In this document: piece after piece, positions 230-23,170 of the stretch
Position numbering within the stretch: the first letter of the stretch is position 1
How the letters are laid out: each line of letters starts with the position of its first letter
Origin: Amoebophrya sp. A120
Lineage: Eukaryota > Protista > Dinoflagellata
NCBI GenBank assembly: GCA_905178155.1
Contig: CAJINV010000014.1
Span: 716,116-780,115, forward strand
DNA length: 64,000 bases
Direction of reading: 5' to 3'
Notes under the pieces: generated by a model
Database searches by the model: none
Told to the model about the DNA's origin: nothing
What the model saw: only the letters and a program-made list of their open reading frames with translations
Translations under genes and position numbers: made by a program

Positions 230-3200
230 CCCCGCGTCGACAGCCAGCTCCTTGCCGATGTCGGACATTTTGGTGTCTTCCTTGGCCAGCCACAGGGACC
301 GGACCAAACCCAGCACGGACTGCACCCCTATGGACACAGACATCGACATGGCCAGACTCGTGGGCGCGAGCATGTAATCCTTTCCGGCCACCGCAGAGGA
401 AGCATTCGCGAAGCTGGGGCCCGCCGCAGGGTGCTGCCGAATCACGTGCAGGCCGCCACGCATCTGAGTTTATTTTTGCTAGTTGTTCGGTATAGTTACT
501 TGGAACTGCGTATGCCTACTATTAATCAGCTTTAGAAAAAATTTTCCATGGTGGTCTGTCACGCAGATGGATCACAACAACTACAACATCCAACGGGCCC
601 TGCTCTATTAAATGAACGAATAGAAGCGTAGGAGTAGTACCGGGTCCACTTTGAAGGTGTAGTGTTTTAGCGGCAAGAAATTCTCTCCGATCGCGTTGAT
701 ACCACCTGCCAGGGACGAGGAGGCCCCTCCTGCGGACGCCGCGCTGGTCGCGCCCACAGAAGTTGCACCAGTGCTTGAGGCCGCAACCGCGTGGGCAACG
801 GCCTGGGATGAAGCTGCGCCCGCTCCTCCAGTGACACCTCCACTCCCCGCGGCCACCAACGCAGCGTTGACTTGCCCGGCGTTGTTTGCAATGAACAAAT
901 TGCCCCCGGCGGTGGAGGCAGTGGAGACGTATCCTGTGCAAAAACGTCGGGGGCCCCAAACCGCATGTTAATTGGAGGTCATGCAAATCTGCATGCAGCT
1001 GCCCCAGAAGTCTCTCATCATGATTCCCAATGAGCAGCACTTTCCATATGACGTGTTGGACCAGCCTTCCGAAAAAATCATGCTCTTGCTAGCAGGACCA
1101 CAACATGGCCAATTACAATTTCAATTCGTCGTGATGCGGCTATTTATAGCCAAGCACGACCACAGAGACAGACACATACACACTGCATGTCATCAAAAGC
1201 ATGCGGAGTCGACAATGTGCTTCTCGAACAAGAAGATCTGTCTAACCAGATTTCTGATCTCGCCTCCGGAAAGGGGTGAACGACGTTTTTACATAGAATA
1301 AGATGACGCGCTGGATGAGCCAGGTGTCCGCGACGTTTTTGATGGCGTTGGTGGTACTGGAGCCGGTCGCGCCGAGAACGTAGGCGGGCGTGATCACGTT
1401 GGGCGTGGCCCGGTAGTGCGTTATAACGCGCTCAGGTGTTACAATCTCAAACGTTACAATAGAGTTTGGAAATCTGTGATCCAAAAAGTGCATGACCTAG
1501 CCTTCATCTCCCACAGGTCTGCGCATGACAAGTTCCGGAGTCCCAAACCGCACTAGAATCATCATCTGGCGAGATTTGTATTGCAGAAAGTGGACCAAGT
1601 CTGTGTCTGTCATGCTCATCATGCAACACAAAATCCAGACTCTATTGCCACATTGAAGATTGCAACATCTGAGCAAGCCATATGCGTGATCCGCGTCTCC
1701 TGTTCTATGGGCTGCTTCATCTCGGCCTCCCAACGGTTCGACAGGTTGTTCTGCTCCAGGTTGGGGTGGTGCGACAGGGCGGCCCGGTTGATCCGTGTTC
1801 GCGCGGTGGTGGTGCAAGAGAGTTTCTTCGCTCGTGCACAGGTCGTCGTCTCTACTTCGGACGTAGTCTTCAGCTTGTCGCTCAACCTGATCGCCGGGGT
1901 CTCCTGTGCCGTTCCAACACCGCCTGCTTCGTCGGGCGAGACCGAGAGTGTAGCTGCCGTTCCAGCTTCTGCATGACAAAGTTCATGGTCTGATTCCGTG
2001 CAAGCCGTGGACTCAACATCGGACTGGGACGAGGGCCCGTGCTGGTGCTTATGCAGTAGGAAAAGTACACGACCGCATGAGGATTTTCCTCTTCATTCAT
2101 AACCATAAGTAGTAGTAGAAATTATTGCATCACAAAAAATTGTTTATGCAGTACAACAAGCAAATACCAACATCTGAAAGATGGAGAGAAAGAGGTTTTA
2201 AAACCTCTGCGATCATACCGATCAAGACTCGTATTGCAAGTATAGTACTGCTGCAAATTTCCGCGGTACTACTGGTACTGCAAAAATTGGAATTTCATCG
2301 TATGATTAGAATTATAACCCGTGATCATGCGAGGATGGTACTTTTGCAGATGGGATACTGGTTTGTTTTTTTCTTCTATGGAGAGAAAAAAGTTTGTCAC
2401 AGTCACTACCTTGCAGGTTTTGCATTACAAATTTTTTCAGCATCACAGCTTTTCTTTGTATTGCAGAAACACTAGGGAAATCCCTAAGGAAGTTTGGCTG
2501 TGATGCATTTTTACGCATGACAGGAAGTTTTGTATTGCAAAAATGCGCATGAGTGATCGTGACGAACTTTTTTTGTTTGATATCTTCGTCGGTCCAGTAA
2601 AACTCTGTTTCCCGGCGCGCCGACCATGGAGTTTTGGAACCTTCACCGTGATGGGTTTGTCGTGAAAGTATCACTTGCAAAAACGTCCCCATCCCAGAGT
2701 TGTCATGCAGATTGGCAATGGCAGGAACATTTGTAATGCGCATCTCCATGAGAGGCATTTCCAGTCGTGTTTTGGCATTTGCAATGCTGTAACCAGGATA
2801 AGCAGATGGATTTGTGATGCGTTTGCCCTTGCTAAGCTGCACTACACTACGGACTGAAACTTGTGATGCGTGAGTTCCAAAGCCTCTAGGTTTGTGTTGC
2901 AAAATCCCCATCTTGACTCTGGGGTGGGGACATCTTTACTCAGGATAGGAAGGCGCCAAAGGTCAGCGACTGGAAATCGGACTCGGAACCTCCCGAAGCG
3001 GCTGACGAGGGGGACCGCGTGGACTGGTCGGAATGGTGATCATGATGCTGATACTCACCACCAGCGGACGAAGATGTTGATGTGAAAGCGTGCCTAATAG
3101 CACTTCCATCCTGCTGGTGGTCTACTTCACGACGCGCCTCCGACGAAAGAATGTCGTTCGGTCTTCTCCCATTTTTAGTGCCAAAAAGCTTCTTGTCGGC

Positions 3201-6200
3201 ACCATGTTCGCTGGTCGTGTTAATATTCTCTCCACTGGAAGTAGTTGTAGTGCTAGACGTCATGAAAGCTGACACGCTGTGCCAAAACGTGTCAAGCAAA
3301 GAAGGCTTGGCGTTGTAGTAATTTTCATCTTCCTCAGCGCAGGAAACACCTGGACCACGACCGTAGAAATCATCATCCTGCTCATCGGCATTAGAAGTGG
3401 TGTTTGAAACACACGAGCGCGGAGTGCAATTATCAAACAAAAAAGTGCTAACGTTAACGGTTTTCGCAGATGGCAGTTATGCATTTACAAATTTTGCCTT
3501 CCATGCATGCTGCGCAATACAAATTTAGGCACCTGACATTTCCTGATGCATTACTGCATAACAAATTTCGTAAACGTTAACACTTTTTCTTGTGATAGCA
3601 ATTATCCTGCTCCGACGTTGAAAAGTCCTCTACTTCGCTGTTCACGTCGGTGGTAGAGTTCTGGTCCACATCCACCCCGGTGGCGCAAGAATTCTCGTCC
3701 GTGAAGAAAAAAGAACCCCCGCCTGCTTTTGATGATGTCTCGTCCCGTCCGTGCACTTCGAGTTGGTGATCCTCCTCGTCGGATACTACAATTTTTGTCC
3801 CGACATAATCCATCGACTTTTGCGCGGCGGCCGGGGCCGCCCCACCGGGGGGCTTCAACTTCGTATCGCTCCTTCGTGGAGGTCTCTCCGTAGCGAGAAA
3901 GTCGGGGGAGTGCAGCAACAGTGGCGTGACGTCAGACGGTCGTGTGGAATCGTTGTTCCTCCGGTCATCTTGCGTGCAACCACGTGTGGGTGAGAGGGAC
4001 AACGTCTTTGCGCCGTCCGAGTTGGAAGTTGCACAGAAATTGTGCTGAGCATCCCGTGGAGGTCCTCTTGCAGAAGGAGCCCGCCCTTGATGTTCGACGT
4101 CCACATTGGTCTCCTCACTGACAGGTGGGGATTCGAGCAAAAACGTAGACCCGACGAGCAACGAAGAGCCGGTGGATGCTTGTTCTTCGCTGACGCACCT
4201 ACTAGAGATCAACAAGTCCGGCGTTAGTGTTTGCTGCGGTTCTTGTTCAACATCTCCTGTCAACATCAGGAGGCTGTGGTCCTCGTCCTGGATGCTTGAG
4301 GTGGAAAGGTCTTGCGACACCTCACCAACACGCGTCGAGCAACTTCCAACGGAAACATTCAAATATTGTGATGCTGCAGTTCTTGCACCAGAAGGCGCGC
4401 CGCCTTGCTTGTCTTCGTGCTCCTGGAGGTGGTTCTCGTCGTCAACTACACACCAGTTGTCTTCAGGAAGATGATCTGGCGGCGAGTAAAGAGTAGAGGC
4501 GTCAGTACAACCAGTTGTAGCATCTGCATCCCCATCAAGAACTTGTTCTACAGAAGGCGCGGTCGTGGATGCTTGTCGCTCGACGAGGAGATTCGCTTCG
4601 ATCTTAGCTACTGCCCTAACCTTTCGCGGCGTTTCGAAGGCCGCATCCTCTTCATCTCGCAGTTGTGCTATTTGCAAACCCGGCGGGGCTTCTTTTTCTT
4701 GTCGCGGAAGCGGTCGCACATCACGATTCGTAGTTGTAGATTCAACGATATCAGTGTCGGCTTTCCTCGTGCTCTCCTCGCCTTCTGCTTCTTCGAGGTG
4801 GTCGTCGGGCCGCGTTGCAGTGGTCGTGGTGGTTCCAAGGGTAGCTTTCAACAATATCTCGTCACCTTCATCTTCTGCCGACGAGCAGGGAGGTGATAGC
4901 ACATCAACCGGGCTCGTTCTTTTGCTGTGCGGTGGATCATCCTCGACGTCGTCTTCCTCGTCCTCGTCTTGCAGCTCTACTCCCTCCTCTACCACCGGCA
5001 GCTGCATCAATTTTGCCTTGTGCATTCGCATCAGATGATGTTGATGAGAGGAGCCGGAGCCGGACGACAGATGATTATTAGCATGCTTCAACGAGTGGTG
5101 TATCCGGCCGGCCTTTGGGTTGATCTTCGTGTGAGGCTGTGACCACTGTGAGGGATTGTTATTATTTCCAGCTTGTTGCCTTGTACAAGTTGTTGTGCCA
5201 ACGACATGCGCCGACGAGGAGGGGAGTTTGCTGTTGTAAAGAACTCCTGCTGGACTACTGGAGGAAGCCGCAACAACTACTCCTTGTCCTTCTGCTCCTG
5301 CTGGTCCAACAGCTGCACCGCTAGTAGTTCTACAACTCGTCCTCCCGTTTTTCATCATCAAATTGTGGACATTTTTACTACTATTCGTTGCAGTGCCTTG
5401 CTGCAGTTCTAGTGCCTCATGTTCTTCTTCATCACTCGCCCGCGAGGTTTTCTTATCCTCGTGGTCTCGTCTGCTCGACGTCGACCTGGCACCAACAGTG
5501 GAAGTACCGCAAGACGCCGATCTGCTACTACCACGGGCAGCTGCTCTTTGCTCCCTGCCGCCTTGTGCATCTGCAGGGACGATAGTAGATGAAGCGCTTC
5601 TACCCGAACTACCGGCGGTAGGAGCTGTACTTTTGCCGAAAAACTCATGCAAGAAAAAAACTGCGCAAGTCTAGGTAAGTTTGTGTTGCAGATCATGTTC
5701 AATCCAGTCACAGTTGTCATGCTGGTTGTGCGTCTTCATCATGGGTTCGCTTCATAAGTGTTTTCAGTTTCACGTACTTTACTGACGTACTAGGTGCCGC
5801 TGCGCATGACAGATTAATGTGTCAAACAAATTTGTGATGCGACTCAGCATCCTGCTCCAAAGTTACACTTCCACAGTTTTTCTTTTGGATAAAACTGGAA
5901 GGATTTGCCGGGCCGGATGCCGAGCCAGTAATCTTCCAATCGCCGGAGGTTTTTCTCCACAATGCCCTCGGCTTGCGGTTGTAGCTGGGAAAGAACCATG
6001 GCAAGGTTAGAAGATGTTCCAGCACGACCGCAAGTAGAATTTGTCACCTCATTTTCAGGTCCACCAACCGGAGCTCCGCTCCCAGCAGCTTCTCCACGAC
6101 TAGGACCACCGGAAGCCGTTTCCGAACGAGTAGATGATCCGGCAAAATTTTTTGCGGACTCATTTACCATGTCCATGTCCGTCCTCACGGAGGTTGTGGC

Positions 6201-9200
6201 TGTCGTGGTCGTTGTGGTTGTGCCGCACCTTCCCGGGCCCGTGGTTTTGTAGTAGTCGTCGTCCCAGGTAAGCGCTAGAGGTGCGGCCCCCCCTGCAGAT
6301 CCACCTCCAACCAGCAGACCGATTGTGCCAGTACTTCCTGTCGTGGGAATGTTGATTTGATTCCCCGTCAAGAAAATACTGTTTCCGTCTTCCTGCCCGG
6401 GGAAAATACTGCTGCCGGAAGATGAACTACAGGTACCGGCCGACGAAATTTCCACCACCGACTTGCCGAAAAAGTACTCAGAGTGGTACGCGTAGTTGGC
6501 CTATGCATTGCAAGTATACGTCTGGTGCTGTTCTGGAAGGATTCAATTACACTTACACCTGTGATGCGAACAAGTTCGAATCACGCAAAAATTTGTGCTG
6601 CACGAGCGCGCTTGTTCGTCCCAACATTGCTTCACTAGAACGCAAAGAACAATTTTGAGTTTCTCCGTACAAAACAGGCATCTCACCACCTCTGCAAACA
6701 AGCCTGGATAGGCTTTCGGGGGAAGTCAACATCCGCGTCACTTGTGTGAAGGATGCAAAAGCTGCACGACGACGACACAATCGACATCTCCACCTTTCAC
6801 TTCTAGACCCAGACGCAATATTTGCAATGTTGCATATGGCCAGCCCGGGCGGCACGTAGTTGCCGAACGTCAAGGAACGAAAGAGCTCCACCTTGGTCGA
6901 CAGGTGGCGGATGTGCGAGCACAGCGCCGTGATATCAAATGTAAAAATGTCTGGGTCTGGAAGAATGCAGAAGTCTGTCATGCAGATTTTCCATGACCCA
7001 TGAGGTCTGTAATGCATGCCCTAGCATCAGAGATTCTGTGAGGGCTCTCTGATGCTCATACCGCATCAGAAACGCCCTGTCCGATTAGCGCAGATTGCGC
7101 CTCTTATGCTGTTCATGCAATACAGATTTTATGTAGAGTCCAAAGGTAGCATCACAAGTTCCAACTTTCCAGACCCAGACATTTTTGCAGTTCATACGTG
7201 ACGTCCAGAAACGAAATTCGCGCGTTCAGAGCCATCAGGTCCACTTGGCGCACCCGGTTCCCCCGGCGCAGGTGCTGCAAAAACTGCAGCCACGCGGTGA
7301 ACTCGCTGTAGTCACACTCCACGGATATCAACTGTAAAAATGTCCGGGTCTGGAAGATTGCGAGCTTTGTCATGCAGATTTTCCATGACCCATGAAGTCT
7401 GGAATGCAGGGCCTAGCATGACAGAGTCTGTGAGGTCTCTGCCATGCCTATCCCGCATGAGAAACTACCTCCCAACTTGGTCGAAAGTGGACAGCTTTTG
7501 GCACTCATTCGTTCGTTCGTATGGATCGGCTCTGCCGACCGGGTGACCCATCGCCTTGCATATAAATGACCGACATAGGCGATCCCCGTTACGGGACATA
7601 CATATTGGCCGCACGGAAGGGCCCTAGGCGCTACATACATAGTTCATCCTAGCGCCTACCACTTCGGTCGGGACTAAGTCAGCCTGGTCCTGGGGGTTCA
7701 CAGCGCACTAGCCATCTGCTAGCATAAACAGACTGGGTTTTACAAACTGTAACTGATCTAACATCTCATAACAGTGAGGCCATCATAAAGGTGCGCTAAA
7801 ACGGGTTCGGGGCGCTCCGTACGGAAGGGAGCCTTTCGACGCGGCGCACACTCTCCTGTAGAGTTTTACGCGGAACACGGATGGGCCGCGCACGCAACTC
7901 AGTCGAGGAGGACACACGCTCCCTCAATAATAGAGGCGGTAGTCAGGTCACTCACGGCGGCTGGCCTGTCTGAAAACGGTAATCCCCACCACCCATCTTC
8001 CCGGTTCGTCAATGACTCTGGCAAGCCATGTTACTTAGACTCCCCGCACATGCAAATATGGGACGGCGGGGGGGTTTTAAAAAGAGCTCTCGCCGTCCTT
8101 GATCTACTATAAAAGAAAAAGCCCTATAATTTCGGCGAGGCTGTTTAACTACTCGCTAGCTGATGGCCTCCTCAGGCAGCCGGCCCCGGGCATTCTCCGA
8201 GGCTTAAAACTTGCTATATTTTTTCTAATGTCGCGAAGGAAAACAAAGAAAGAAAGTGGCGGCAATGCCGCCAAAGACAACACCCAACCCGAAGACCACC
8301 GGGCAAAAATCATGGGGGGTGGGACACCAAAAACGAACGGGGCCAAGAACTTCGCGGCCAAATACCTAGCGCCCTGGGGCTCCTCCCATCCAGAGAGAAA
8401 ATGGCCCAGAAGGGAGGCGACCCCGAGGGGAGGCCAGGCGCGGTGTGCAAGATTAGGGGGGGCGGCAATTCGCCCACACAAAAAACCGGGAAACCGCCCG
8501 GCGAAATGATCAACAGCAACCACCTAGCCGGAAACAGACCGGGCGGGGCACCTCTTGCCCCGACTAATTCCTTGCCTAAATCGATGCTAAGGCAGGCGAC
8601 TAACTTCGCGCCTAAATTCCTGGCTAAATCACGGCTAATTTTTTTCATTGCAAACCCTTTCGCATTCCCTATGCTTGAATTAGAAACAAATTAGACGCGA
8701 AATTAGACCCCAAATTAGCCCCCCCCAACCCCACCTCTGCGCCCCTCATAAACCTCGGCCGGGCGGGCCGGGGCCATTGATATGCGGCCCGAGACAAATG
8801 GAAAACAGTCGCGCCGTTTCCCTCTGGGGCAAAAACTAAAATCGCAGGGGCGCAAACCTTGGAAACCCCGGGCCCCGATGCGCCACGGGCCCTGCAGACA
8901 CTGGGGCGGGCAATCTTCGCCAAAAAAATTAAAAAAAATCCCCAGCGCCCCAATTTCCAAAACCTGCAAAAACTACCGACGAAAAAACCCTTGCCCGGGC
9001 TACCTCTAGAACCCTTGGGGCCCCAGACTCGTGGGGCCACGACGAAAAGAAAAAAGGAGGGCCACAAGCCGGAACAATGTGGGCCCCACAATATTAGAAA
9101 AAAATCGGCAGCCTTTTAGGCGGCAAATTTGCGAGCCATCGGCCGGCTGAGCCTCCTGTATAGTAATGGTCTCCCTTTTCTCCTCCTTTCCCCTTTCTCA

Positions 9201-12200
9201 ATTTAACTCGCCTGCATCCCCCTGCTAATTTAACTCGCCTCCCCGTTTATCTCTCTGAAAACTCCGTCCGCAGTTTCACTCTCCTGCCAATTTAACCCGC
9301 GACGCCAACGGCTTTACTTCGGCGCATGGTGTGAAATCTTCGCGGCTTCTCTTCTCAGCTCCTCGACCTCTGCGCAGCGTTTTGCTCTGTTACCTTCGTT
9401 TTTTTTTTTTTTGGATCCGCGCCGCGCTTGTTTCTCTGAGTGCGGTCGATCTTCTTGGCCTATCGTCGCCGCCTGTTTGAAAGTTTGGACATTTTGAAAC
9501 GCGCCCCGCGATTCGCCTGAAGCTTATCGGGGTGATCTTGGCCCTGTCGCGTTCGTTGGCAACTTAAGGGATCCCCTGGAGATCCTTAATCTGACTGCGC
9601 TGAAACAATCTGAGAAGTATGAGGGCAGGATCTTAAGGCGAACGCGCCGGGTCATATTTTCCGGCAGTCCTCGAGCCTGCCGGGCCTTTTCTTTTTTTAT
9701 TCAAACGGGAAATAGTGTTTTCGTTTTTTTCTATGATTTCGATGCTGTGCGTTTTTCAAAAATCTCCGGAGTGCATTTCTCAGACTTTTCAGTCGCTCGG
9801 CCTGGTGTCCGATTTTCGGTCCGTCACTATGTCACTTCAATCATAGGGATCCTGCGTCGCCTGAAGTCGTCCCCCCGCTCCCCTTCCTGTGCTGTCTTGC
9901 AGCGATCTCCGAATAATCCGCAGCGATCTCCGAATAACCCGCTTCCTGTGCTGTCTTGGCACTCATGCAACACAAATTTTTGCATTATTCGGATTTAGCA
10001 TGACAAGTTTTAATCTTCCAGACCCAGACATATTTGCAATGCATAACGGAGACGCACCGGCGAAAGTGGCTGTTGCGGAAGTAGAACCGGTACTGGTGCT
10101 TTTTTGTGGACGTCCCGGATATGGTCTTGATCGGGTTCAGAGAGGCGGAACTGCTGTTGTGCGAAGTGGAACTACTAGAGGTGCCGGACCGTGGAGGGGT
10201 GCCAGCGCCTCCTGGAGCACCACAAAGAGGTCCTGGCGTGCTATTGTGTTGCATGCCAGTTATCGACGTTGTACTCACGCCGTTATTAGCAGGTGCTAAA
10301 TCACTACTTCCAGCATGTTGATGCGCTGCGGCAGTAGAAGAAGTCGCAGCGGCCTGATCGGCGACATTGTGCTGGTCCGCGACTGCGGTAGAAGTGGCGC
10401 TCCACCGGCCAAAGATAGAACTCGACCCACTAGCAAGAACACCCGCGCCGCCGGTTGTAGTGGTTCCGTCTTTCATCCGAGAAGTGCTGTTGTTTTGCTG
10501 CTGGTGCTCCACCCCTGAAGAGGAATTATGGCCTCCTGCCCCTGAAGGTGCTGGGGGTGGTCCTGTACAACCGGTAGTTTCGACTTCTTCCTTACTGAAC
10601 ATCGAGTGCGCCCCGTTGATAATGGCCACGTTGCTCCCAATCGAACTCGTCGCGGTCTTCATCTGCTCCATATTACGACCCTGCAAATGTTCACCCTGTC
10701 GCTCGCGCTCGGCCTGCTGCTGGGCTCGATGCTGCGCCTGCTGTTGGGCGGCTGCGGCGGAGTCCGAGACGTGAAGCATTATCATATGTAAAATCGTCCC
10801 CATACCAGAGCCAAGATGGGAAATCTGCTAGACAAAATCAAGCAGCTTTGGTTGCTTCGCATGACAAGTTTGTCCTTGTAGTGTAATCCTGTTTAGGTAG
10901 TTTAGCAGCACCACAGATCTAGCCTATCACGCGGATTCTAGCATCACAAATGCCACAACACGACTAGAAATGGCTTCGCATGGGGCTCCGCATGATAAAC
11001 TTTTTTCGCATGCAGATTTGCATGACAACTCTGGGGTGGGGACGTTTCTGCTCAGAATAAGCATGTCCAGGTTGTTATCGGAGGTGGACAATCGGTTCAC
11101 CGAACTCGCTGAAGAGGACCCGTAGTATCCATGATTCTGCGTACTAGCCATCTGCTGACTGTGCATTTGCTGTTCGATGATTGTCGCACCATTGCCAGTG
11201 TTCACCGTGTCGCCGGGTTCATCTGTGTTGCAGCTGTTCGTGGTTTTCGTCAGCGAGGTTGTGTTGTTTGTGGTTATGGTCGTCCCAGCATTTTGATTTT
11301 GCGCGGCACGACCCGCAGACGAGCTGTGGCTGTGGCGCGGACCTCCACTTGTTTCCAGGTGCTGATTCTGTTGGTCTACTTCTACTGCTCCAGACGTAGA
11401 ATTACTGGTTTTATTCACATTTTTCGAGGAGGAAATGGAGCAGGAGGAGGTCGTGTCAAATGTAAAAATGTCTGGGTCTGGAAGAGTGCATGTTTGTCAT
11501 GCTTGTCTGGTATGATTCTCAAATCTGTCATGCACGTTACCGAATAGCGCCAGTTTTCTGTCATGCAGAAACGCAGGCTGTAATGCAGAATAAGCAACAC
11601 CTAGAAGCTCAGAAACTTGCCATGCTGAGCCAGCACTTGTGGCCTCCTCATGATACGCCACCCAGCATCACAAGTTTCCAGACCCAGACATTTTTACATT
11701 TGATAGGTCGTGCTGTGCTTCGGATTGTCCACCGACGAGGACGCGAGGTTGCTAGAGGATGATCCTGATGCTGCTATGAAAGCGTCTGGATTGAAATCGT
11801 CAAAGTTGAAATAATTATTTCTCATGCATAAATTGGAAGGCATGAAGCGCCTCTCTTGCAGGGATGGCAAGTGAGGCCGACTGTCAGCCTGTTTGGGGTC
11901 TGCGATGCAGCTGCTGAAGTAGCATGACAAAGGACGCCTTCTATCCCTAAACAGCATGACAAACTGGATTTAGACGGTGCCGAAATTTGTCATGCGCCCC
12001 TTGGCAATTGGGCTTCCAACTGGTATCGATTTTAATATGCATATACAAGTTATTTCAACTTTGTCGATTTCAATCCTGACACTCCCATAGCTGCGTTTGG
12101 GGAAGAAGTGGAACTCGAGGAGGAGGAGCTCGTCGTGATTTCGTACGGCAAAACCAAGAGGTCCGCAATGAAGCGGCTGGCTTCAATGTGCGGCAGGCAC

Positions 12201-15200
12201 AGGTATGAACTGCAAAAGTATCGTACTAGTATAAATTCAAATTGCAATACAAATTCGCTCAGCATTACAAGTAATGCGGATTTACCTCAACAGCCTAGAT
12301 TTGTAATGCATAGCTGCAATTAGTACGAGTACGAGACTTTTGCAGTGCATAACAGGTACTCCTGGGGGATGTCCAATGTCAGCTGCATCGTCGCCCGGTC
12401 CAAGGAATAGTCCTCTTCCAAAATGCGGATCAGGTCCAGCGAAATCCGGTCCGCCGTCGACATTTCGGTGGGGCGGGTGACGATGATGGAGTGGAACAAC
12501 TTGGAAGACAACAGGTTGCCAATCGGTTTATCAAATGCAAAAGTGTCTGGGTCTGGAAGAATGCAACTTGTGATGCGCATTTCAGAACACAGAAAAATCT
12601 CTCACGCATAGGTGGCAAAAGCTGCCCACTTTCTGTCACCAAAATGTAAATGGGGGATTTGTCATGCGGATTCGGCATTGCGGAAGCTTCTCGAAACCTG
12701 TGATGCTAGAGCTTCCATGCCAGACCTTCTGTGTCATGCAAAAACAGCATGACGCTTCCAGACCCAGACATTTTTACAGTTGATACGGTTCCTCCGGCAG
12801 CAAGTGCGTCGCGGACCGGAAGGCGGACAGCTCCATGTAGTCGAGCCCGTAGCACTATGGATTGCAAATATGTCTGGGTCTGGAAAGTTGTAATGCTGAA
12901 TGGTCATGATTGACGGCGCCGGTAAGTGCAGTGCAGCATGACAAATGTTTCAAACGCTTTCTCATGCGCAGAACGCATTACAAAATGCGCTTTTGCAAAG
13001 CGAGAGTGTGGCGGTTTATTTGCTGCTTATGCAATACAGATTTCTTAGGAATGTGAAAAATGCAACACAGATTCAACATTTCCAGACCTAGACATATTTG
13101 CATTTGATAAGTACCGCATGGCCTTCCGGTACACGTTGCGCCACAGTGTGGTAGGCTTTTCCGCTAGGATCAAGCTGTAGTGAAAATTCCGGGAGGGGCA
13201 CAGCCGGAGAATCACCAGGTTGTTCTCGTTCATATGAGCCGAGTTGTTGCAGGAGCTGCTATTGATGTTGCCGCCAGACTGGCGCTGGTGGTGGTTGTAT
13301 CGCCCGGAAAAATTATTAGTACCGCCTCTCGTCGCGGTGGTGCCCGGGTAATGCTTCTGCTGCTGCATCTCGTCAATGTTGAAAGTGTTACTAGTACTCG
13401 ATCCATGATGAAGAGGACCACGATAGTTGTTTTCAACAACACCACCCACGCTATGCTCCGCGGAGCCCGCTCGGTCAGGATCTTCACGATAGTTGTAATT
13501 GCTGTGTAGTGGCTGCAACGACCCAACGTCTTCGAAGTATCAACTGTAAAAATGTCTGGGTCTGGAAGAATCCAACTTGTCATGCTGATTTTGGATTCTA
13601 AAAAAATATGCATTGCATGAGGAGCAAAGAGAGTCCAAGTTTTGCTACACGAAAAGAGCATTTGTCATGCGGTATAGGCATCAGGAAGCCCTCACAAAAT
13701 TTGTGATGCTAGCGCATGCATCACAGACATCAGAAGTCATGCAAAATGCGCACGACAAACCTGGCAATCTTCCAGACCCAGACATTTTTACATTTGATAC
13801 GAAGCTAAGCTTGCTCATTTGAGGGTCGTCGTGCTGCTGCACCAGGTGCATGCTGTAGTCTTGCTTGATCAGATATCGCAGGGAAAACTGTTTCACTTTG
13901 ATGATTTTGCAAGATCTGCATCACAAGTTTGTTACACATGACGCTGAAAATCTGTCATGCGCGCTTCCCAAGGGAAAACACGCTTGAAAATCCAATGTCT
14001 TGCAGGTGTAGCAAGACAAGTAGTTCTGTGTTCCATTTCCTGCATCACAAGTTCACAGTGAAGCAGTTTTTTCTTGCGATATCAGACTGCCCGTAAATCC
14101 CGCCCGCACGCTGTAGTACTTGGAAAAGGACTTGTTCATGCGAAATACCTCGTGGTCCACCAGATTCGAGTTGTTTTGTCCGGTTTCAACATCGATTTGG
14201 TAGTGTTTATTGTAGTAGTTGTCGTGGTGCGTGCCGTTGTAGTGGAGCTGCTGATTATTCTGGCCGTAATCTGGCAGAGCTAACATTCCACCTGCTCCAG
14301 AACTACAGTTATAATTTCTCTTGCCGTAATTATTTCGAGAGAAATTATGGTTGTAGAAGTTGTGTGTCAAATTGCAGTTGGCTCCACCAGCATTGCTCGC
14401 CGTGACCGGGGGCTCCTTGACGTGATTCCGGTTATTTTTCAAGTACAGCAGCGCCTTGCTGTGCAGCAGGAGCTTTTTCTGGCGGTGGTAGGCCATGGAC
14501 GAGGACGAGGAATTGATATCATGATGCGAGGAGGAGACAATTGCAGATCCTGAATGCTGCGGCGCGCCGCGGCAAGCAGTAGTTGTTGCACAACTTCGAA
14601 GGTTATCCTTATCTTTAACATCCCGCAGTGATAATCTACTCCCCCCCGCGAGCCCAAACGCGGACGATGTAGCGGAGAGTTGATGCGGCCCAACATAATT
14701 CATCCTGAGCCGCAGGTCCGCCTTGAGATTGCACCGTGCCAGAAACCCGGTGGATTTCCAGCCCTTCTGGTAAAAATGGTAGTCGGTCATGGTCTATCAA
14801 ATGTAAAAATGTCTGGGTCTGGAAGATGGCAACTTGTCATGCTAAATCTGAATCAGGCAAAAAACTGTGTTGCTTGATTGCCAAAAGTTGTGCACTTTTG
14901 ACCTAAAAATCGAGAGGCAGTTTCCCATGCAGGATAGGCATTGGAAAGGTTTCGCAGAATCTGTCATGCTATGTCCTGCATACCAGACCTCATGTCATGG
15001 GTTATGGAAAACCTGCATGACAAACTCCTGGAATCTTCCAGACACATTTATTTTTGCAATCCATATGGCCACGTCCAGCGGGAACTTCGTGTAGGGGAAC
15101 AGCTCCGTGACCTTCTTGCACAAAACGGACGACTTGAAAAGGTACTCGAAGCGGTTCAGACACCCCTCCACGTACTCCAAGACGTCGGACAAAATCCCGG

Positions 15201-18200
15201 AATAGATGCGCTCCACCATGTTCCAAGAACCTAAATTTTCCTCTATCACAGTGAGAAATGCCCCCACCCCAGATGAATTTAGCCGCATTTGCATTGCAAA
15301 TCTTTCCAATACAAACATTTCCCGTCTTGCATATTTATATGAGCATCGCAAGTTTTAGTTGCTGAGACGCTCAAATCTGTGTTGCAAAGGAGCCCAACAG
15401 CAGGCGGATCTGTTATGCAAGGGATACCTTGCCGCGCAGCTAGATTCTGCGTCAGAAAGGCTCCCACCTCGCAGTCCTTTCATGCAACACAAAACGCTTG
15501 CATTTGGAAACTTTGCATGAGAGACTTTTGCAAATTCCGGTCAGGGGGCATTTTTCATTGTGATATCCTCCGCGTGCGACAGCGCCCGCAGCTCCACCGC
15601 GGACCCCGATCCGCCGATCCCCGAGAAGAGGTTCGTGTACGCTTCGACCACCTGGGAAATGAGCAGGTAAATCTGCACCAGGGTCTGGAAGGACAGCTGC
15701 TGGCTATTCTGCTGGTTGTTATGATTTGCATTTTGATTTTGCTGTGCATTTCTGTCCAACATCCCGTTATTGTTCAGTAGGGAGGTGTGCGCACCATTAT
15801 TACCATTTGTTCCACCCATGACTCCACCCCCGCCCCCGCCCGCAAGCAGGTGTTGCGTCGACGAGCTGTTGCGCGCATTAGAAAACCCGTAAATGGTGGA
15901 GTTCACGGCGTTGTGGTTGGAATTGCTGCTGTGCAGCGAGCTGTGGGCTGCCGCGGCGGAGGACGAATTGTGCTGGTGCACCAACCCGCTGCCTTGAGTC
16001 CCATTACCACAGTTGGTGTTGCTGCTCGAGCCAAAGCAGGTCAGCTGTCCGGTCCGCTCGTTAATGTACAAAGCCTGCTCCAATCGCTTCTTGAACGCAT
16101 CGCCGATGGTCAGCACGATGTTTCGAATCCGCTTGCGCAACAGCTGAAACGCGTTGTTCACCGTTTCGATTTTCACCGTCGAGCCACTAGTTGCGTTACT
16201 ACCTCCAGCCGCGGCGTTGTAATTATTTTCAACAACACCGTGCTGGTTGTGTGCATTGTAACGTCCTCCGTTGGATGTCGAATTATTCGAATTTGCGTTG
16301 TTTTGCCCAAACTTGTTCTTATCCAGGGGGGTGGCGAGAATGTAGATGAGGTTGCACTTCTTCAACACGTAGAGCTCCTCCTATGCACTGCAAAAGTATC
16401 GCACTAGTAGAAATTGCATTACAAATTTTCCCAAGAACAAAAATGCAAGTTGTCATGCTATTTCAGATGAATAGTTTGATTTGTCATGCATATTATCTGC
16501 AATTAGTACGAGTACGATACTTTTGCCCAGGATACCTCCTCCATTTCGTTGATTTTGTGATTCAACTCGTTCTGAAATAACGTGGACTGATTGTGCTGGC
16601 GCTGCGCCGCTGTGTTGTGGTGGTGGTTTCTACTATTCGACGTAGCGGAAGTACGAGCACCGGTCGGATGTTGGTACGCGCGATTTAGTTGTTCACCACT
16701 GCTGTGACCTCCGCGCGGAGCTGCTCCCGAGGACCTGTGCTTCGAATTCGACCTGCCTGCCTTGAACTTGGGATCATTGTGATGGTTTGTTCTTGCCTGA
16801 CCATTTTCTCTCATCTGGTGCCCCCTGCTCGAACTACCATTATTGTTGAACGTAGTTCCACCGCCCATCCTCATTCCGCTGCTTCTCTTGCTGCCGCTCC
16901 TGCGCTGTTGCGCAGTCATAGTCGTGGACATTCCGAAGGAGGAGCTCATGTTCGTGGTCCCCTTGCTCTGGTTGTTTTCCGAGGTGGAGCGGCTGAGCAG
17001 GTTGTGCTGTCGGCCCTGCTCACACTTAATCCGTCGCCCGTGGTGCTCCCGGAGGGTCAAACAGCCGAACGAATTCTTGTTCGCGCGGCCCCGGCTGCTT
17101 TGGTTTGTGGTCGGCGTGAAGTCGTCCTCCTGGGTGCTGGAATTACTGTCAGAGTGGTTGTTCAAGGAGTGATTCATATGGCGTTCTCAAATGTTACATT
17201 CTCAACTGTTACATGATTTGTCATGCAAAATGACCATGAGCCACCAGACGATCAAGCTGCTTCGCATGACAAGTTCTCGCATGGCTAAACAGCGTCTAAA
17301 TCTCTACCAAATCTGTCATGCAAGACGCGCAAGCTCCCTCCTTTCATTTTTGCCATTCTTGCATGGCAAATTCATGTAACAGTTGAGAATGTAACAGTTG
17401 AGATTGCCATAATTCATGGTGCCCAGGTCGATCTCCGTGACGCAGCCAAACGTGTCCTATGCATTGCAAAAATATCGTACTCGTATTGCAGTCATGCATT
17501 ACAAATCTTTTTCTTAAGGTAAATCCGCATCACAAATTTTATTTGTCATGCTGAGGAAATTTGTAATGCATTTATACGAGTACGATACTTTTGCACAGGA
17601 TATGTCCCCAGCGTCGACAATGAGGTCGTCGTCCTCGTCGTCTGTCGTCCCAAGGTGGATCTGGTGACCACCACCTGGAGCTGGTGCTCCTCGTCCTCCG
17701 ACGTGCTCACCGCCTCGGTACAACGAATTCTCATTCTCAAAATCGCAGTCGTCCCCGTGAAGCTGCTGCAGGCCCCCGTGGTCCTCGTCTTCCTCGTCGG
17801 CATCTTCCTCGTCCAGAATTTCCCGCGGCGAAGAGATCTCCGTGCACTCGTCGATATTTTTCCGGGATTTGAGCAGCAATTCTTCGTTCTTTTTGCTCCG
17901 TCGGGTCCGCAGGTATTCCTCGTCCTCCCGCTGTTCTTCCTCATCCAAGATCGACCCGTGGCCCACCATCATCGGCGTCGTGGCCTCCTGGAGGTTCTGA
18001 TTCAGGTTATTTGTTGTTCCTATAGCGATCGCATTCAGCGACGATAATTTATTGCCGCAACCACCAGCCGTGTGGACGTGGTCGGTATTCGGATTGATGT
18101 TCAGGTGGTTCATTTGCGACAGTACGGCTACCGTGCTGGGTCCGGATTTCATCAAATTTTCGATCTTTTCCTCCGTCAACGGCTGGACGATCAGTTCAGT

Positions 18201-21200
18201 AGTTCTGTCGCGCTGTACAACTTCTAGACCTGCTTCATCGCGTTGTTCCTGAGTAGATGAAAAAGGAGCTGCTGCACGACCAATGTTGCTCGCTCCACCT
18301 GTGTACGTCGTGTCCTCTATGGCTTGAAACGCCGTGGCTGCTTTGGTCGCGGAAATTGTGCGGGAAATGGAATTTTGCAAACAAGAAGAAGTCATCTCGG
18401 CCAGTGTGGCGGTGGCATTGTTGTGAGTGGTGCTGTTCGAATCCGTACGAATGATCTTTGTCTTCAAATCAATCTTCAAGTTGCCGCTTCTGTTTTTGCT
18501 GTTGCGTTTACTGTTATTGTTCGCATGTTGTTCTTTACCGCTGCTCCTGGAATTTTTCGAGTCGCTGCGAGAGTGCTTGTGGCAGCTGCTGTCCCGGTGA
18601 TTGATGATTATTTCTCCCTCCTTATAATTCTCGCCTTGCTCGTCAGCATTCACTGCAGGCGGAGAGGAATCTTTGTGGCCACAAAAGGCTGCTCCGGGAA
18701 GGAGATGTGAAGCCATGTTGCTGTCTTTGCTAGCTTTCCGACGAAGATTCAACATTCTCGCTTCCTCCGTTTCTTGTGGACGATCTTGGTGCAGAAGCTC
18801 TTTTGACGCCGAGGAGCTTCTCTTCTGCTTCTTTTTGGATGTTGCAACTACTACCTCACCGACGCTCTCGTCCCTCCTGTCGTTCGTCCCCTGTAGTTGA
18901 TGCCCGCGCCGATTTTTTCCGCTTTTGATGTTGTGTTTCATGATATTGTTGTTCTTTCCCCCCGTTGTTGTAGTATCCTGGTGACCCTCAGCAGTCCTAC
19001 TTATTGCGCGCCGGCCTCCGGAGGTTTTTTTCATCCCGCTCCCCGCAGTTCTCGAGGTCGTCCGCCTGCCACCTCCACCTGCGTTATTGTTAATATGTGC
19101 AACCTGTTGTATCCGCGCGTTGGTGCCCCCACTCGACCTGGAGGTCGCGTTCGAGGACGAGTTGTTGTGCTGGTTGGTGTTACTCAGCGGCGGTAGGAGC
19201 CTATGCTGTGCAAAACAAAGTATCGCACTCCCTCGTACTAATTGCAGACATGCATGACAAATCGCCTTTCTATAGCTAAGCCAGCATTCCCAATTTCATC
19301 TGTCACTCTAAGGAAATTTGTAATGCAATTTATACTAGTACGATGCTTTTGCACTTCATAGAGCTGGGTTTTCTGCAAAATTTCTTGCAGCAGCATGTCC
19401 GGATCCGGGTGCAGCAGGATCAGATCCCAGTTCAACCCAAAGGTGTTGCAGCGGTCGCAGTGGCTGTGGAACAGCTTCTCCATGGATTCCATCAATTGGT
19501 ACTCGTTCCGCGGATTTTGGTACAGTTTTTTCAACCATCGTTGCAGCTTCAGAATCGACTTCTTGATGAAAAACGGCTCGCACTGCGCGTGCAGCTCGTT
19601 CGGGTCGGAGGCGGAGGCGGGCAGGGGTCTTTTATTCCGTAATGTATTCGGATCATGTTTCAGTGAAGACTTCTTGTTTTGTTTCGAAACAACAAGCTCC
19701 TGCTGCGAGTGGCTACACGAGCACGTAGTTGTTGGTGCGCCTGACCTGGAAGTAGATGTCACGACAGATGTTGCGCAAGCGGGATTATTTAGTAAACCCG
19801 CATCATGTTGCTGCAACTGATGTTGTTGAAGTTGAGAACTACATGCCCCTTGCGGCCCTTGCTGCGTGTGCGTAGAAGTATCATACTGGAGGTCAAGATG
19901 AACATTATGTTGCTTGTGCATCAAGTTCAGCCTTGGATTGTGCTGCTGCTGATACGACAAAGCCATCGACATGGTCCTCGTCGTGTCGCCCGCGTTGTGA
20001 ACAAGACCTACTTGTTCACTCTGCCCACAGGAACTGCTTGCGTTTTCACCCACGTGACTCATCGGGTCCGCGCGGGAGTGCAGGTAAAAGTCGCTGGAGG
20101 GTGCGAGCGTGGCGAAATTACTGTCCGCCGTGGCGGAGTGGTTGTCTTCGCCTGTGTAGAAGTGGTCCTTCTCCATAGTTTTGGTGTAGAAGGAGCTCGT
20201 CGCGGAGCTGCAGGGAATGTCCTGCTCGGTCAAATTAGAATTACGCCCGTGCTGGCGGCCTCGTCGTGGGATTATTTCGCCGCTCGCGGTCGTTTCCTCG
20301 CTGCTGCTGTTGTTTGCAGAAGATGAACTGTGAGCATTCATCCCCTCCTCGTTCTCGTGTTCGTTTTCCTCCTCCTCGTCCGAGGTAGTACTAGAGAAGG
20401 TCGGCTGCCGGGAGAAGGAAAACCGAGGGCTCGTTTTATTGCCGATTGCGCTCGTAGTTCCTGACGTGCCGGCTGGATTTGTTTCACTCTGCAGCAGTAC
20501 TTGACCACAATGTTCTTCACCCTGCTCGCCTCCGTCTGCAGATGAAGTGCCTCCTCCTTCTCGAGGTGGATCAGGAGCTGCGCCCACTACACCAATTGAG
20601 CTGATCGCACTGCTTTTTTCATCTTCATCTTGATCCTCTTCACGACGAGGACCCACGAACGAGGAAGTTGTACAACCAGAGGCACTGGAAAAAGAGGATG
20701 ATCCACTACCACTGCTGTTCTTTCCGCGCCTTGGAATTTTCTCTACTACTTGTTCCGTGGACGTCGAGCTGCTGTGTTCTTGTTCCACCTCGCAGTCGTT
20801 TGTTAGACGATGATCATCTCTATGAAATGTAAAAATGTCTGGGTCTGGAAGATTCATGCTGTTTTTGCATGACACAGAAGGTCTGGCATGGAAGCTCTAG
20901 CATCACAGGTTTCGAGAAGCTTCCGCAATGCCGAACCCGCATCAGAAATCCCCCATTTTGGCAACAGAATTGAGCAGCTTTTGCTACCGATGCATGAGAG
21001 ATTTTTCTGTGTTCGAAAATGCGCATCACAAGTTCAAATCTTCCAGACCCAGACATTTTTACATTTGATAATCTCCGCCTCCCAGCACCGTCGATCTCCC
21101 CGGATGGCTGGTCGTTGCGGAGAGTATGCACTGCACTCGTATTGCGATCATGCATTACAAATCTCCTTTTTAAGGTGCATCTGCATTACAAGTTTTTATT

Positions 21201-23170
21201 TCTCATGCTGAGGAAATTTGTAATGCATTTATACGAGTACAATACTTTTGCAATTCATAGAGAGACAGTCCTGTTGATCAAGTTCAAGGGTTGATGATGT
21301 TGACGTGTCGTGAAGATGATTGTAGCCCTGAAGATGACCATTGTGTGCAGCTGCCGTCGTTGTCCTCGCCGTGGTGTTTTTAAGCATGATACTATTACCA
21401 CTGGACCACGACGACGATGAAGTTGAGCAGGAGGATATCCTGAGGAAAAACGTACCCACACCAGAGTCAGGATGGGGATTTTGCAACACAAACCTAGGAG
21501 TTTTGTGAATCACGCATGACAAGTTGCAGTTCGTAGTGTAGTGCAGGTTAGCAAGTGCAGCCGCGTCACAGATTCATCTGCTCATCCTGTTCACAGCATC
21601 ACAAATTTCAAAACACGATTGGAATTGGCTCTCATGGGGATGCGCATTACAAGTCTTCCTGTCTTTGCAAATCTGCATTACAACTCTGGTGTGGGTACGT
21701 TTTTACTCAGCATAGAGGAGGAAACCAGCAGCTGTGGCGGCTTCTGCCCGTTCACGTACAACTGGATCTCGATATCAAATGTAAAAATGTCTGGGTCTGG
21801 AAACTTATGATGCTGTGTGGCATATCATGAGGAGGCCACAATTGCTGGCTCAGCATGACAAGTTTCTGAGCTTCTAGGTGTTGCCTATTCTGCATGACAA
21901 ACTACGTTTCTGCATGACAGAAAAGTGGGGCTCTTTGTTAATGTGCATGACAGATTTAAGAGTCATGCCAGACAAGCATGACAAACTTGCATTCTTCCAG
22001 ACCCAGACATTTTTACATTTGATACTCGATTTTCCCGTGCCACAGACTGGACTCCAGCAGATGTTGCGGGTTCAGCAGGTGTCGCACCCCAAAAGCCTCG
22101 TTGAAAATCCACAGCTGGTACTGCATCGAGTTCGCGATCGGGTTGTTGTATGTCCCGGAGTTCATTCCATACTGCGGGTTGTTGTAAGAGCTACCGGGAA
22201 CTACTCCACCTCCGCTGTTGGGCATCATCATGTTGTTCATCATGAGCGCAGTAGTACCGCCAGAAGCCGATGTTGAACAGCCCATCGTATGATCGCTGTT
22301 GATATGCATTGCAACTATCCCTGGATGTCTGAAAGATTGCAACTTGTCATGCTAAATCCGAAACATGCAAAAATTTGTGTTGCATGAGTGCAAAAAGCTG
22401 TCCACTTTCGACCAAGGTTACCATGCAGGATTGACATGGCAGAGACCTCCTCACCGAGTCTGTCAACATGCTAAGTCCTGACTCTAGACCTCATGGGTCA
22501 TGAAAAACCTGCATGACAAGTTTACAAGCTTCAGGACATCCAGGGATTTTTGCACTTGATAGTTGATGCTGATCTGTACCAGCATCATCAACGCGTGCTT
22601 GTGGATCTTTCGGAAGGCCTCCAGCGGGTACTCGTTCTCGATCAACACAATATTCCCGGAGCTGCAGTGCGAAAACCCCGACGCGTCAGTCAGGGTCACC
22701 CGCAACGTGCGGATCCTTTCCTGCTGAAGGTTCTTGTCGTGCGCGTCATGGTGGGACGAGGAGCGTAGTGCTGGGGCAGGATGATCATGATGATATTTAA
22801 TATCATGTTCCTGGTCGTGGTGCTCCGCCAGGGGCAGGCTAGCATGGTGCAGCAGGGGTTCATCTCGCTCAACCACTGCCCTGTTCGTGTTCAGGTTCAT
22901 CTTCTCGTAGTAGTCGTAAGAACAACTCCCGTTGTTTGATGCATACATTGTGCTCGCCTCAACAGCTCCTACACGACTGTGCTGCTGTCCTTCTTGGAAC
23001 AGTAGGCGGGACGGATCACGGGGGTCGACTACACGGGCGCCGTTTGGAGGTTGATTCTGCTGGTGCGCCTCGTCGGCGTACAACATCCGATGTTGAGGAC
23101 CGTCCATCGCACCAAAGGCAGCTGTAGTATCTTCGGCAGCGTAAGTTGATGAACAAGGAGGTCGCTCCAT
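230..23170 (-). CDS. Giant multi-exon uncharacterised protein (>4,000 aa; low-complexity S/T/N/G/Q tracts between folded blocks); 3' end uncertain, probably runs off the window start
   Basis: ATG at 23170 (MERPP). Excising 26 consecutive introners (element + 5 nt) keeps one open frame to 2358 (12,030 nt = 4,010 codons). The 1422 junction is also in frame. Joins between 2358 and 230 are only partly resolved. No family recognised. Confidence 0.7.
930..1048. mobile_element. Degenerate introner (B-like)
   Basis: TATC...CATA ends, TSD agacg/tgacg. Confidence 0.5.
1422..1682. mobile_element. Introner family E (degenerate)
   Basis: TSD tgcgt; frame restored RITH|YRAT. Confidence 0.75.
2197..2357. 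mobile_element. Degenerate introner (B-like)
   Basis: Right end TACTTTTGCAGATGGGATA; left end decayed; TSD gaggt/ctggt. Confidence 0.45.
2377..2582. mobile_element. Introner family G
   Basis: TSD tcttc; very similar to 35984-36189. Confidence 0.9.
2669..2947. mobile_element. Introner family C
   Basis: TIR core AAAACGTCCCCA..CCAGAGT; TSD gaaag/ggaag. Confidence 0.85.
3431..3597. mobile_element. Introner (G-related)
   Basis: TSD gcaat; frame QDNC|TPR. Confidence 0.85.
5646..5891. mobile_element. Introner family J
   Basis: TSD aaact; CATG...GATA ends; in frame. Confidence 0.8.
6502..6836. mobile_element. Introner family A (degenerate)
   Basis: TSD tggcc; in frame. Confidence 0.85.
6933..7196. 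mobile_element. Introner family A
   Basis: TSD cgtga. Confidence 0.92.
7326..10045. mobile_element. Introner family A carrying the nested 2.45-kb insert
   Basis: TSD acgga; frame RCVS|VEC restored. Confidence 0.9.
7509..9955 (-). mobile_element. 2,447-bp non-TIR insertion (retroposon/non-LTR-like, non-autonomous or degraded) nested in an introner
   Basis: 11-bp TSD TTGGCACTCAT at 7498-7508 and 9956-9966; (TCGT)3 at the left end; the flanking halves join into an intact family-A introner (compare 26510-26774). Confidence 0.8.
10780..11059. mobile_element. Introner family C
   Basis: TSD agcat. Confidence 0.85.
11454..11705. mobile_element. Introner family A
   Basis: TSD ggtcg. Confidence 0.92.
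11775..12089. mobile_element. Introner family H
   Basis: TIR core GGATTGAAATCG.CAAAGTTGAAAT; TSD gctgc. Confidence 0.88.
12204..12351. mobile_element. Introner family B
   Basis: TIR TATGAACTGCAAAAGTATCGTACT; TSD acagg. Confidence 0.92.
12529..12785. mobile_element. Introner family A
   Basis: TSD cggtt. Confidence 0.92.
12856..13109. mobile_element. Introner family A
   Basis: TSD agcac/agtac. Confidence 0.88.
13538..13799. mobile_element. Introner family A
   Basis: TSD cgaag. Confidence 0.92.
13874..14081. mobile_element. Introner (J-like)
   Basis: TIR TATCGCA.G.AAAACTG.TTCACT; TSD tcaga. Confidence 0.88.
14795..15065. mobile_element. Introner family A
   Basis: TSD tggtc/tggcc. Confidence 0.9.
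15244..15565. mobile_element. Introner family C-related
   Basis: TSD tcctc; related to 45052-45356. Confidence 0.88.
16382..16534. mobile_element. Introner family B
   Basis: TSD cctcc. Confidence 0.92.
17177..17411. mobile_element. Introner family E
   Basis: ~40-bp TIR TATGGC.TTCTCAA.TGTTACATTCTCAACTGTTACATGA; TSD attca. Confidence 0.92.
17458..17602. mobile_element. Introner family B
   Basis: TSD tgtcc. Confidence 0.92.
19202..19360. mobile_element. Introner family B
   Basis: TSD gagcc/gagct. Confidence 0.88.
20821..21070. mobile_element. Introner family A
   Basis: TSD atctc; inverted relative to 12529-12785. Confidence 0.92.
21125..21259. mobile_element. Introner family B
   Basis: TSD gagag. 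Confidence 0.9.
21436..21714. mobile_element. Introner family C
   Basis: TSD gagga. Confidence 0.9.
21773..22024. mobile_element. Introner family A
   Basis: TSD ctcga. Confidence 0.92.
22303..22561. mobile_element. Introner family A variant
   Basis: TSD gttga; both TIR arms carry matching changes (TCCCTGGATGTC / GACATCCAGGGA). Confidence 0.9.

Follow-up and report, generated by a model that had tools for sequence, protein, structure and literature searches.

How an intron can be disrupted by foreign DNA and still be removed is a question raised by one locus in a 64,000-nucleotide stretch of the Amoebophrya sp. A120 genome (contig CAJINV010000014.1, positions 716,116 to 780,115; hereafter the window). 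The window is dense in elements of 140-380 bp with TAT...ATA inverted ends and 5-bp direct repeats, and these ends match the TAT-N7-AAA motif of the introners of Amoebophrya A120 (PMC7789003). One of them, lying within a large gene, makes an intron 10.5 times as long as the local median (259 nt). With somewhat better than even confidence, we read this locus as a three-layer nest that is removed as one non-canonical intron, in which a retroposon-like element likely entered an introner by target-primed reverse transcription (TPRT) with an enzyme borrowed from a long interspersed nuclear element (LINE), likely with a preference for this one T/GCA site of family-A introners (the slash marking the nick), and in which an element with terminal inverted repeats (TIRs) likely arrived later.

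The interrupted introner and its removal

The outer element is a family-A introner with TAT...ATA ends (7326-10045) interrupted by a 2447-bp insert, without which it would measure 262 bp. An earlier note, made from the sequence alone, had described its TIRs, its ACGGA target-site duplication (TSD) and the flanking exon frame as intact, and this was borne out. The TIRs have 34-nt arms with 82% complementarity, both ACGGA copies are present, and removal of 2725 nt leaves the frame open in all six possible registers, whereas retention brings 31-51 stops per frame. None of the six registers is GT-AG. The outer element therefore shares with A120-type introners the TAT-N7-AAA TIRs, a boundary repeat within the 3-5-nt range (ACGGA), membership of a repeated family that occurs in unrelated genes (22 copies were counted in the window and 141 paired ones in a relative) and non-GT-AG removal.

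The note also placed a split at TTGGCACTCAT, duplicated as an 11-bp TSD. Both positions are right, and on the + strand of the window this 11-mer occurs only at 7498 and 9956. The length of the duplication was refined to 8-11 bp, as its first three bases, TTG, also close an internal repeat of the inserted element (9880-9899 and 9939-9958) and may be microhomology. When the insert and one 11-mer copy are taken out, the 262-bp remainder aligns end to end with eight other copies in the window (73-88%), and twelve further window matches are partial or weaker over the full length. One sister introner carries a single 11-mer at the exact insertion point and represents the empty site. A chance repeat is thereby ruled out as the source of the 11-mer pair.

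Contigs from two DNA runs (X1, X2) and three probable RNA runs (X3, X4, X5; two samples of one study, their RNA nature being a guess) were compared with the window. A joint of 7320 to 10046, with five letters fitting either side, was found exact in contigs of all three probable RNA runs, namely in a 15,640-nt contig of X3 (depth 105), a 15,664-nt contig of X5 (depth 117) and at depth 3.8 in X4. The joint keeps a 4020-codon frame open, and it was not seen in the DNA run X2 (15 of 24 joints listed), in which a zero depth over the exon at 7197-7300 is a hole without evidential value. X4 also joins 10773 to 11059, skipping another introner, and under the host gene model 179 nt of the X3 contig precede the ATG, which is consistent with the removal of all upstream introners. 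The RNA joint that the note had proposed to look for was recovered, from cultures that may lack the insert, and it supports the exact removal of 2725 nt (the element and one TSD copy) as one non-canonical intron. The probable transcript contig of the host gene (15.6 kb) runs about 3.4 kb past the stop codon. In the raw RNA runs X9 and X10 (2026), 190 and 3 reads match, all partially and none on host exons. About 160 of the X9 reads carry part of a family-A introner (window 9961-10035) joined to unrelated sequence on both sides, and represent an abundant RNA that retains part of an introner from another locus.

An improbable alternative is that a shorter allele was spliced, the insert being polymorphic or misassembled and the RNA coming from cells with the 262-bp introner or with none. 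The probable RNA runs do come from other samples than the DNA runs. None of them showed the focal insert sequence unspliced, and X3 and X5 contained no intronic sequence of the focal copy, as would be expected both if removal is efficient and if the allele is empty. Neither inner junction is bridged, with 31 letters on both sides, by any DNA contig listed, and the window departs from the nearest DNA contigs by 8 differences in 1264 positions and by homopolymer indels. However, a perfect TSD that matches the empty site of a sister copy is hard to produce by misassembly, the exon pieces in the probable RNA runs show no differences from the window, and the 5' part of the inserted element is present in the DNA at two to three copies. 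A 972-bp nested introner in the RPB1 gene of an independent assembly, described below, also speaks against a shorter allele.

The note held that splicing tolerates the long loop and that this implies recognition of the intron ends. The first part is supported by the joint, whereas 'implies recognition' is too strong. The introner is intact on either side of the insert, so that all the case demonstrates is that its two halves can be spliced out when separated and that intron length is not gauged; TIR pairing, exon definition and protein binding would all be compatible with it. In predicted folds the terminal TIR stem is identical in the 262-bp and 2720-bp introns (duplex -39.9 kcal/mol), and such pairing could hold the intron ends together at any length.

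Features of the nested introner and its surroundings (window coordinates)
Feature	Position	Strand	Remarks
Host gene model	2325..23170	-	4020-codon open reading frame (ORF) rich in Ser, Thr, Gly and Asn (S/T/G/N); 26 TIR introns; focal junction near residue 2860
Host exon downstream of focal intron	7197..7320	-	124 nt
Outer 5-bp TSD ACGGA, left copy	7321..7325
Family-A introner, left part	7326..7508		183 bp; TIR 7326-7359; 3' part of the intron as read by the host gene
Inner TSD, left copy	7498..7508	+	First nick placed by TPRT geometry at T7508/GCA (inferred)
(ACGA)3 simple-repeat 3' tail	7509..7520	-
Retroposon-like element, 3' part	7509..8165	-	Common to tens of related copies by contig depth
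33-nt motif	7858..7890	-	Also in a different abundant sequence (3/3 probable RNA runs) and in a DNA depth peak
6-7-bp direct repeat GCCTCC(T), left copy	8166..8172	+	TSD of the third element
Third element	8172..9150		Non-coding, 979 bp; TCAG...CTGA ends; imperfect TIR of about 58 nt
Retroposon-like element, 5' part	9151..9955	-	Sense strand purine-rich; contig depth suggests about 2-3 copies
6-7-bp direct repeat of the third element, right copy	9151..9157	+
Short A-B-B-A repeats at element 5' end	9880..9958	-
Inner TSD, right copy	9956..9966	+	First 3 nt may be element microhomology
Family-A introner, right part	9967..10045		79 bp; TIR 10012-10045; 5' part of the intron as read by the host gene
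Host exon upstream of focal intron	10046..10774	-
Outer 5-bp TSD ACGGA, right copy	10046..10050		Retained in the spliced form
Family-A introner of another subfamily	21773..22024	+	21915-21943 matches the flank of the second copy, 27/29
Sister family-A introner, empty site	42502..42762	-	Single 11-mer at the exact insertion point

The low end coordinate of the host gene model was calculated from the ORF length, and none of the twelve exons scanned has a Pfam family above the cut-off. A TTL protein of the window has its best named matches in Effrenium and Perkinsus (46-48%). Two diverged family-A-like introners with variant TIRs were observed at 55828-56070 and 57030-57322, and the repeats that flank 26510-26774 are mismatched.

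Two probable elements inside the introner

The note had taken the whole 2.45-kb insert as one retroposon-like element. The TSD, the tail, the missing TIRs and long terminal repeats (LTRs) and a one-sided depth all stand, but 979 bp belong to a third element, and the insert is most likely composed of a 1462-bp retroposon-like element and a 979-bp TIR-type element nested in it. The TIR of the 979-bp block scores 38, a value reached by none of 1000 shuffles and none of 1777 random pairs. Its empty site, a joint of 8165 to 9151 with seven shared letters, was found in DNA (depth 90, about two copies) and in X4, and a 907-nt DNA contig that matches 8961-9150 and departs exactly at 9150 is an independent copy of the third element. 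Since it has TIRs, a TSD, an empty site and copies elsewhere, we regard the block as most probably a distinct, non-autonomous element of the TIR type; no Pfam match to a transposase was found in its ORFs. The contigs nearly identical to the block have depths of 187-190, compared with 162 for the retroposon just 3' of the block and 103-136 for its 5' part. The block is as deep as or deeper than the 3' retroposon side, which argues against a native block that was deleted in two copies. Slippage or deletion between inverted repeats instead of an insertion is a lesser alternative, which keeps some weight because the TIR is imperfect.

The 1462-bp element lies in the sense of the host gene. As the note stated, the insert has no TIR (the TIR and LTR scores of its ends are 17 and 12, compared with a shuffle mean of about 16) and it ends in (TCGT)3. 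In X2 the summed contig depth starts at about 2980 (7509-7612), drops to 1410 and stays mostly within 190-630 thereafter, apart from a peak at 7821-7924 (1608); it is 105-200 over 9277-9900, and the single-copy flank has 44. Contig depth is a rough measure that gives no copy number and does not separate truncation from subfamilies with a common 3' end. The depth gradient in X1 has the same one-sided shape (90% likeness). In non-LTR elements, target-primed reverse transcription leaves many tail ends and few far ends, and this would account for the pattern seen here, where tail ends number in the tens and far ends only two or three. A long TSD, no TIR or LTR, a simple-repeat tail (short, and present in a second copy too) and an excess of the 3' end are all retroposon features of this element.

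It is very improbable that the 1462-bp element is instead a TIR-less DNA transposon, possibly still target-specific, which we would presumably class as Dada-like or non-TIR Mutator-like. An 8-11-bp TSD would suit a DDE transposase. The shortness of the tail, the lack of any reverse transcriptase (RT) in the sequences searched and the 5' end region common to about three near-identical copies also speak for it. The abundance of the tail end alone, not of both ends, and the simple repeat of the tail nevertheless argue for a retroposon, as do the tetranucleotide- or poly(A)-tailed inserts of a relative with their varied TSDs of 7-21 bp.

Several other classes were considered for the insert. An autonomous LINE was rejected, as there is no RT or endonuclease ORF: none of the six frames read through stops has a Pfam match (E<=1), and the longest sense ORF is 69 aa without the 979-bp block. 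The enzyme would therefore have been supplied in trans. A short interspersed nuclear element (SINE) was rejected since no tRNA, 5S, 7SL or snRNA head with Pol III boxes was found; ARAGORN gave no tRNA, Rfam no family (two sub-threshold chance matches) and a consensus search no B box. A short interspersed degenerated retroposon (SIDE) of the R2 type was set aside as neither Rfam nor a descriptor found a 5' HDV-like ribozyme, a processed mRNA copy as a motif search found no spliced-leader relic in the insert, and Helitron, LTR element and solo LTR by the presence of the TSD and the absence of an LTR. A hammerhead-like core at 8175 exists only through the end of the 979-bp block and has no stem I by eye, and was rejected. 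Folds of the ends are no better than those of shuffles (z -0.07 and 0.79). Pattern scans of metagenome and viral contigs gave no match to the 3' end of the element, a scan of viral contigs gave none to the introner TIR, and no DNA loose ends at the 3' end were seen among the six rows listed per run. The 33-nt motif may be a 3' element recognised by a putative partner LINE, and is a candidate link to a partner family.

Insertion site and nesting in a relative

A second copy of the retroposon was found in X4 (record 18), with ten differences and one gap in 205 nt and with its own 29-nt flank at the tail end. This flank matches 27 of 29 positions at 21915-21943 (score 50; best of twenty shuffles 26), within a family-A introner of another subfamily, and its next matches are the same spot in three sister introners; the placement is by direct alignment, nhmmer against the family-A profile having given no match. 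The second junction falls in the same alignment column and orientation as the focal one, at T/GCA, although the two host introners are only 61% identical. The retroposon copies agree at about 95% and their host introners at 61%, and up to the junction each flank follows the sequence of its own subfamily. The insertions must therefore have been independent, and the copying of a composite as a unit was rejected. The chance of the same column and orientation is 5e-4 at random and 0.019 given a TGCA preference. Both known tail junctions, out of probably tens, are at one column; a target-specific element would be expected to have more than 20% of its copies beside one repeat, at one site and by independent insertion. 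The two junctions hint at site-specific targeting of family-A introners by the retroposon.

As a control, a TIR scan of one assembly of a relative (JACKZZ01) yielded 151 stretches, which make up 148 loci (545 kb, with overlaps). Four of its 141 paired family-A introners are filled (L047, L048, L069 and L071), with inserts of 215-691 bp and TSDs of 8, 13, 16 and 19 bp. The 39 unpaired left ends include L006, whose 976-bp insert is flanked by a 21-bp TSD, and L068, in which the insert measures 24 bp and the TSD 7 bp; the insert of L073 ends in poly(A) and L026 runs off its contig end. The tails of the relative's inserts include (AATG)3 and poly(A). When mapped on the focal 262 bp, six insert sites lie at 39-57, 45-60, 92-104, 131-151, 151-155 and 203-209, and none at 173-183. 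The filled copy L071:6014-6985, a 972-bp family-A introner with a 691-bp poly(A)-tailed insert and a 19-bp TSD, lies inside RNA polymerase Rpb1 domain 5; conceptual removal of the 972 bp leaves the RPB1 frame open. We take the interruption to be at the trigger-helix region. Nesting and length tolerance are thus ordinary for the lineage, and together with the hot spots noted below they favour tolerance as the baseline and temper any claim of targeting. The note's view of introners as safe havens holds as far as tolerance goes, with 4/141 introners filled in the relative and one of them in RPB1, and active targeting is possible in view of the second junction at the same column.

Other observations were made in the relative. 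The inserts L006:8614-9589 and L048:3966-4304 (976 and 339 bp; TSDs of 21 and 13 bp) are related (70% over 249 nt, with a common right end) and both start at a C(A/G)TGACA introner motif at different positions, as a second passenger family with a motif preference. Further introner inserts at L047:684-903, L068:2605-2909, L025:5304-5760, L073:8961-9456, L018:505-1608 and L026:5483-6215 form a set with (AATG)n, (GATT)n, (GAT)n, poly(A) or unclear ends. L045, L098, L064 and L090 were rejected as split introners because they are tandem duplications or differ in length as subfamily variants do. Candidates whose outer TSDs do not match were, with the exception of L006, dismissed as pairs of separate copies.

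Beside the points that speak for a shorter allele, several observations weigh against the favoured reading. The insert, the block-free element and the block gave no BLASTN match in the 148 loci of the relative, and the autonomous RT partner that the note proposed to look for did not appear among 71 long ORFs of the window and the relative's loci. The tail of the retroposon-like element has three units only, and its contig depth cannot be taken as copy number. The site preference rests on two junctions, one of which is 29 nt in a single contig of a probable RNA run. Introners exceed exons 3.6-fold in the density of TGCA and 12-fold in that of ATGCA, the chance of a shared column is 0.088 given a TGCA preference within family-A introners, and two of the six unrelated inserts overlap (39-57 and 45-60), so hot spots exist. 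Shuffled inserts give the same terminal stem (4/4), the fold test being insensitive by design and no proof of a mechanism in cells.

These points bear on a rival explanation that we consider possible but rather unlikely, in which introners are a passive safe haven: the element would have only a loose preference of the T/GCA type and insert anywhere, its copies would persist mostly in introners since exonic insertions are purged, and the shared column would be a hot-spot coincidence. Several unrelated long-TSD inserts at scattered sites in the filled introners of the relative, two of them overlapping, are in keeping with it, as are the richness of introners in TGCA/CATG motifs, the within-family chance given above and the retroelement matches of published A120 introner families (PMC12130899, file 8). 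On the other hand, the same column and orientation in a 61%-identical subfamily, the genome-wide chance of 0.019 even with a TGCA preference, and the absence of all six unrelated inserts from the focal site argue against mere coincidence.

Under the favoured reading of a nest built in stages, events would have run as follows. A 262-bp TAT...ATA introner would first have settled in coding sequence with a 5-bp TSD, as the locus still displays. An endonuclease would then have cut the + strand at 7508/7509, and the 3' end so released would have primed the copying, which began at the (ACGA)n tail. The TSD would stem from another nick at a distance of 8-11 nt. The 979-bp TIR element probably entered afterwards at 8166-8172, to judge from its empty site and TSD. 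In the probable RNA contigs 2725 nt appear to be cut out exactly, with no GT-AG register. The TIRs are predicted to pair the intron ends whatever lies between them, so passengers would cost the gene little, and if the two junctions are representative, the retroposon family would target this T/GCA site and tolerance would become a niche.

A bolder version, which we put forward tentatively and with well under even confidence, is a retroposon lineage whose endonuclease is aimed at a single conserved site of the genome's dominant intron-forming transposon, and whose copies are transcribed in host pre-mRNA, excised scar-free and reused as intron RNA templates. If true, this would be a hyperparasite in thousands of self-renewing splice-out slots, its excised RNA flanked by its own target sequence.

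Comparison with known systems

The focal intron resembles the introners described for Amoebophrya A120, which have inverted repeats starting with TAT-N7-AAA, short boundary direct repeats, repeated families and non-GT-AG ends and are removed from RNA, a hairpin model having been proposed (Farhat et al. 2021, PMC7789003). Their non-canonical introns have a mean length of about 240 nt (PMC7789003), whereas the focal one exceeds its local median 10.5-fold and carries two passengers. How non-GT-AG introns are removed in Amoebophrya without a detectable U1 snRNA is an open question (PMC7789003), for which nested introners are natural insertion mutants: in the focal one 2.46 kb are placed 79 nt from the intron 5' end with exact splicing, and the inserts of the relative, which occupy six further positions and in one case lie in RPB1, show which stretches of the introner interior can be dispensed with. 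Euglenid nonconventional introns likewise have TIR-paired ends and TSD-like repeats and range from dozens to thousands of nucleotides, although lineage and end motifs differ (PMC11282704); the length tolerance of TIR-defined introns is thus already on record.

One A120 introner family (fam38) has TA/TA termini and a 5-bp TSD and is called Ginger (PMC12130899). File 8 of the same work (50 of its 58 A120 rows, with column meanings as we read them) holds large families with LINE or LTR peptide matches and end coordinates of 4-16 kb, among them the short-TIR families fam3, 6, 12 and 16. Gozashti et al. 2025 treat such matches as introner origins, while in our reading they are passengers; the several-kb short-TIR families may be passengers in published data, so that some A120 introner families labelled as retro-derived may be TIR introners with passengers. 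Secondary insertions were filtered out (PMC9860276), and further background is found in PMC4640811. The word 'nested' is absent from the main texts of PMC12130899, PMC7789003, PMC9860276 and PMC11282704, and in the sources consulted we found no publication that describes retroposons sitting inside introners or aiming at them, Repbase-type catalogues and supplement figures lying outside this scope.

The new part is the possible site-specific targeting of an introner, with two junctions, and three systems offer parallels. Tx1 (Tx1L) of Xenopus is a non-LTR element at a preferred site of the non-autonomous piggyBac Tx1D, a safe haven like the one considered here (PMC6719617, PMC4494074); Tx1, however, is autonomous, has an APE endonuclease and lives in an animal, whereas for the focal element no ORF or partner was found in the sequences searched and the host element is an intron excised from mRNA. 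The crocodilian SINEU-3 in Mariner-N4_AMi is likewise non-autonomous, with a long TSD and independent insertions into a MITE-like (miniature inverted-repeat transposable element) host, and hitchhiking had to be excluded in both cases; it differs in its snRNA head and in 313/347 copies checked, as opposed to no small-RNA head found and two junctions here (PMC4494074). R2 and R2/R1 SIDEs are non-coding, site-specific and dependent on an autonomous LINE, with a possible origin from host co-transcripts, much as proposed for the focal element, which differs in that no HDV-like ribozyme was found, its target is an introner and not 28S rDNA, and its LINE origin is putative (PMC3414825). If the targeting is true, transposon-targeted retrotransposition would reach beyond animals into a dinoflagellate, and would include a case in which the host element is an intron in its own right.

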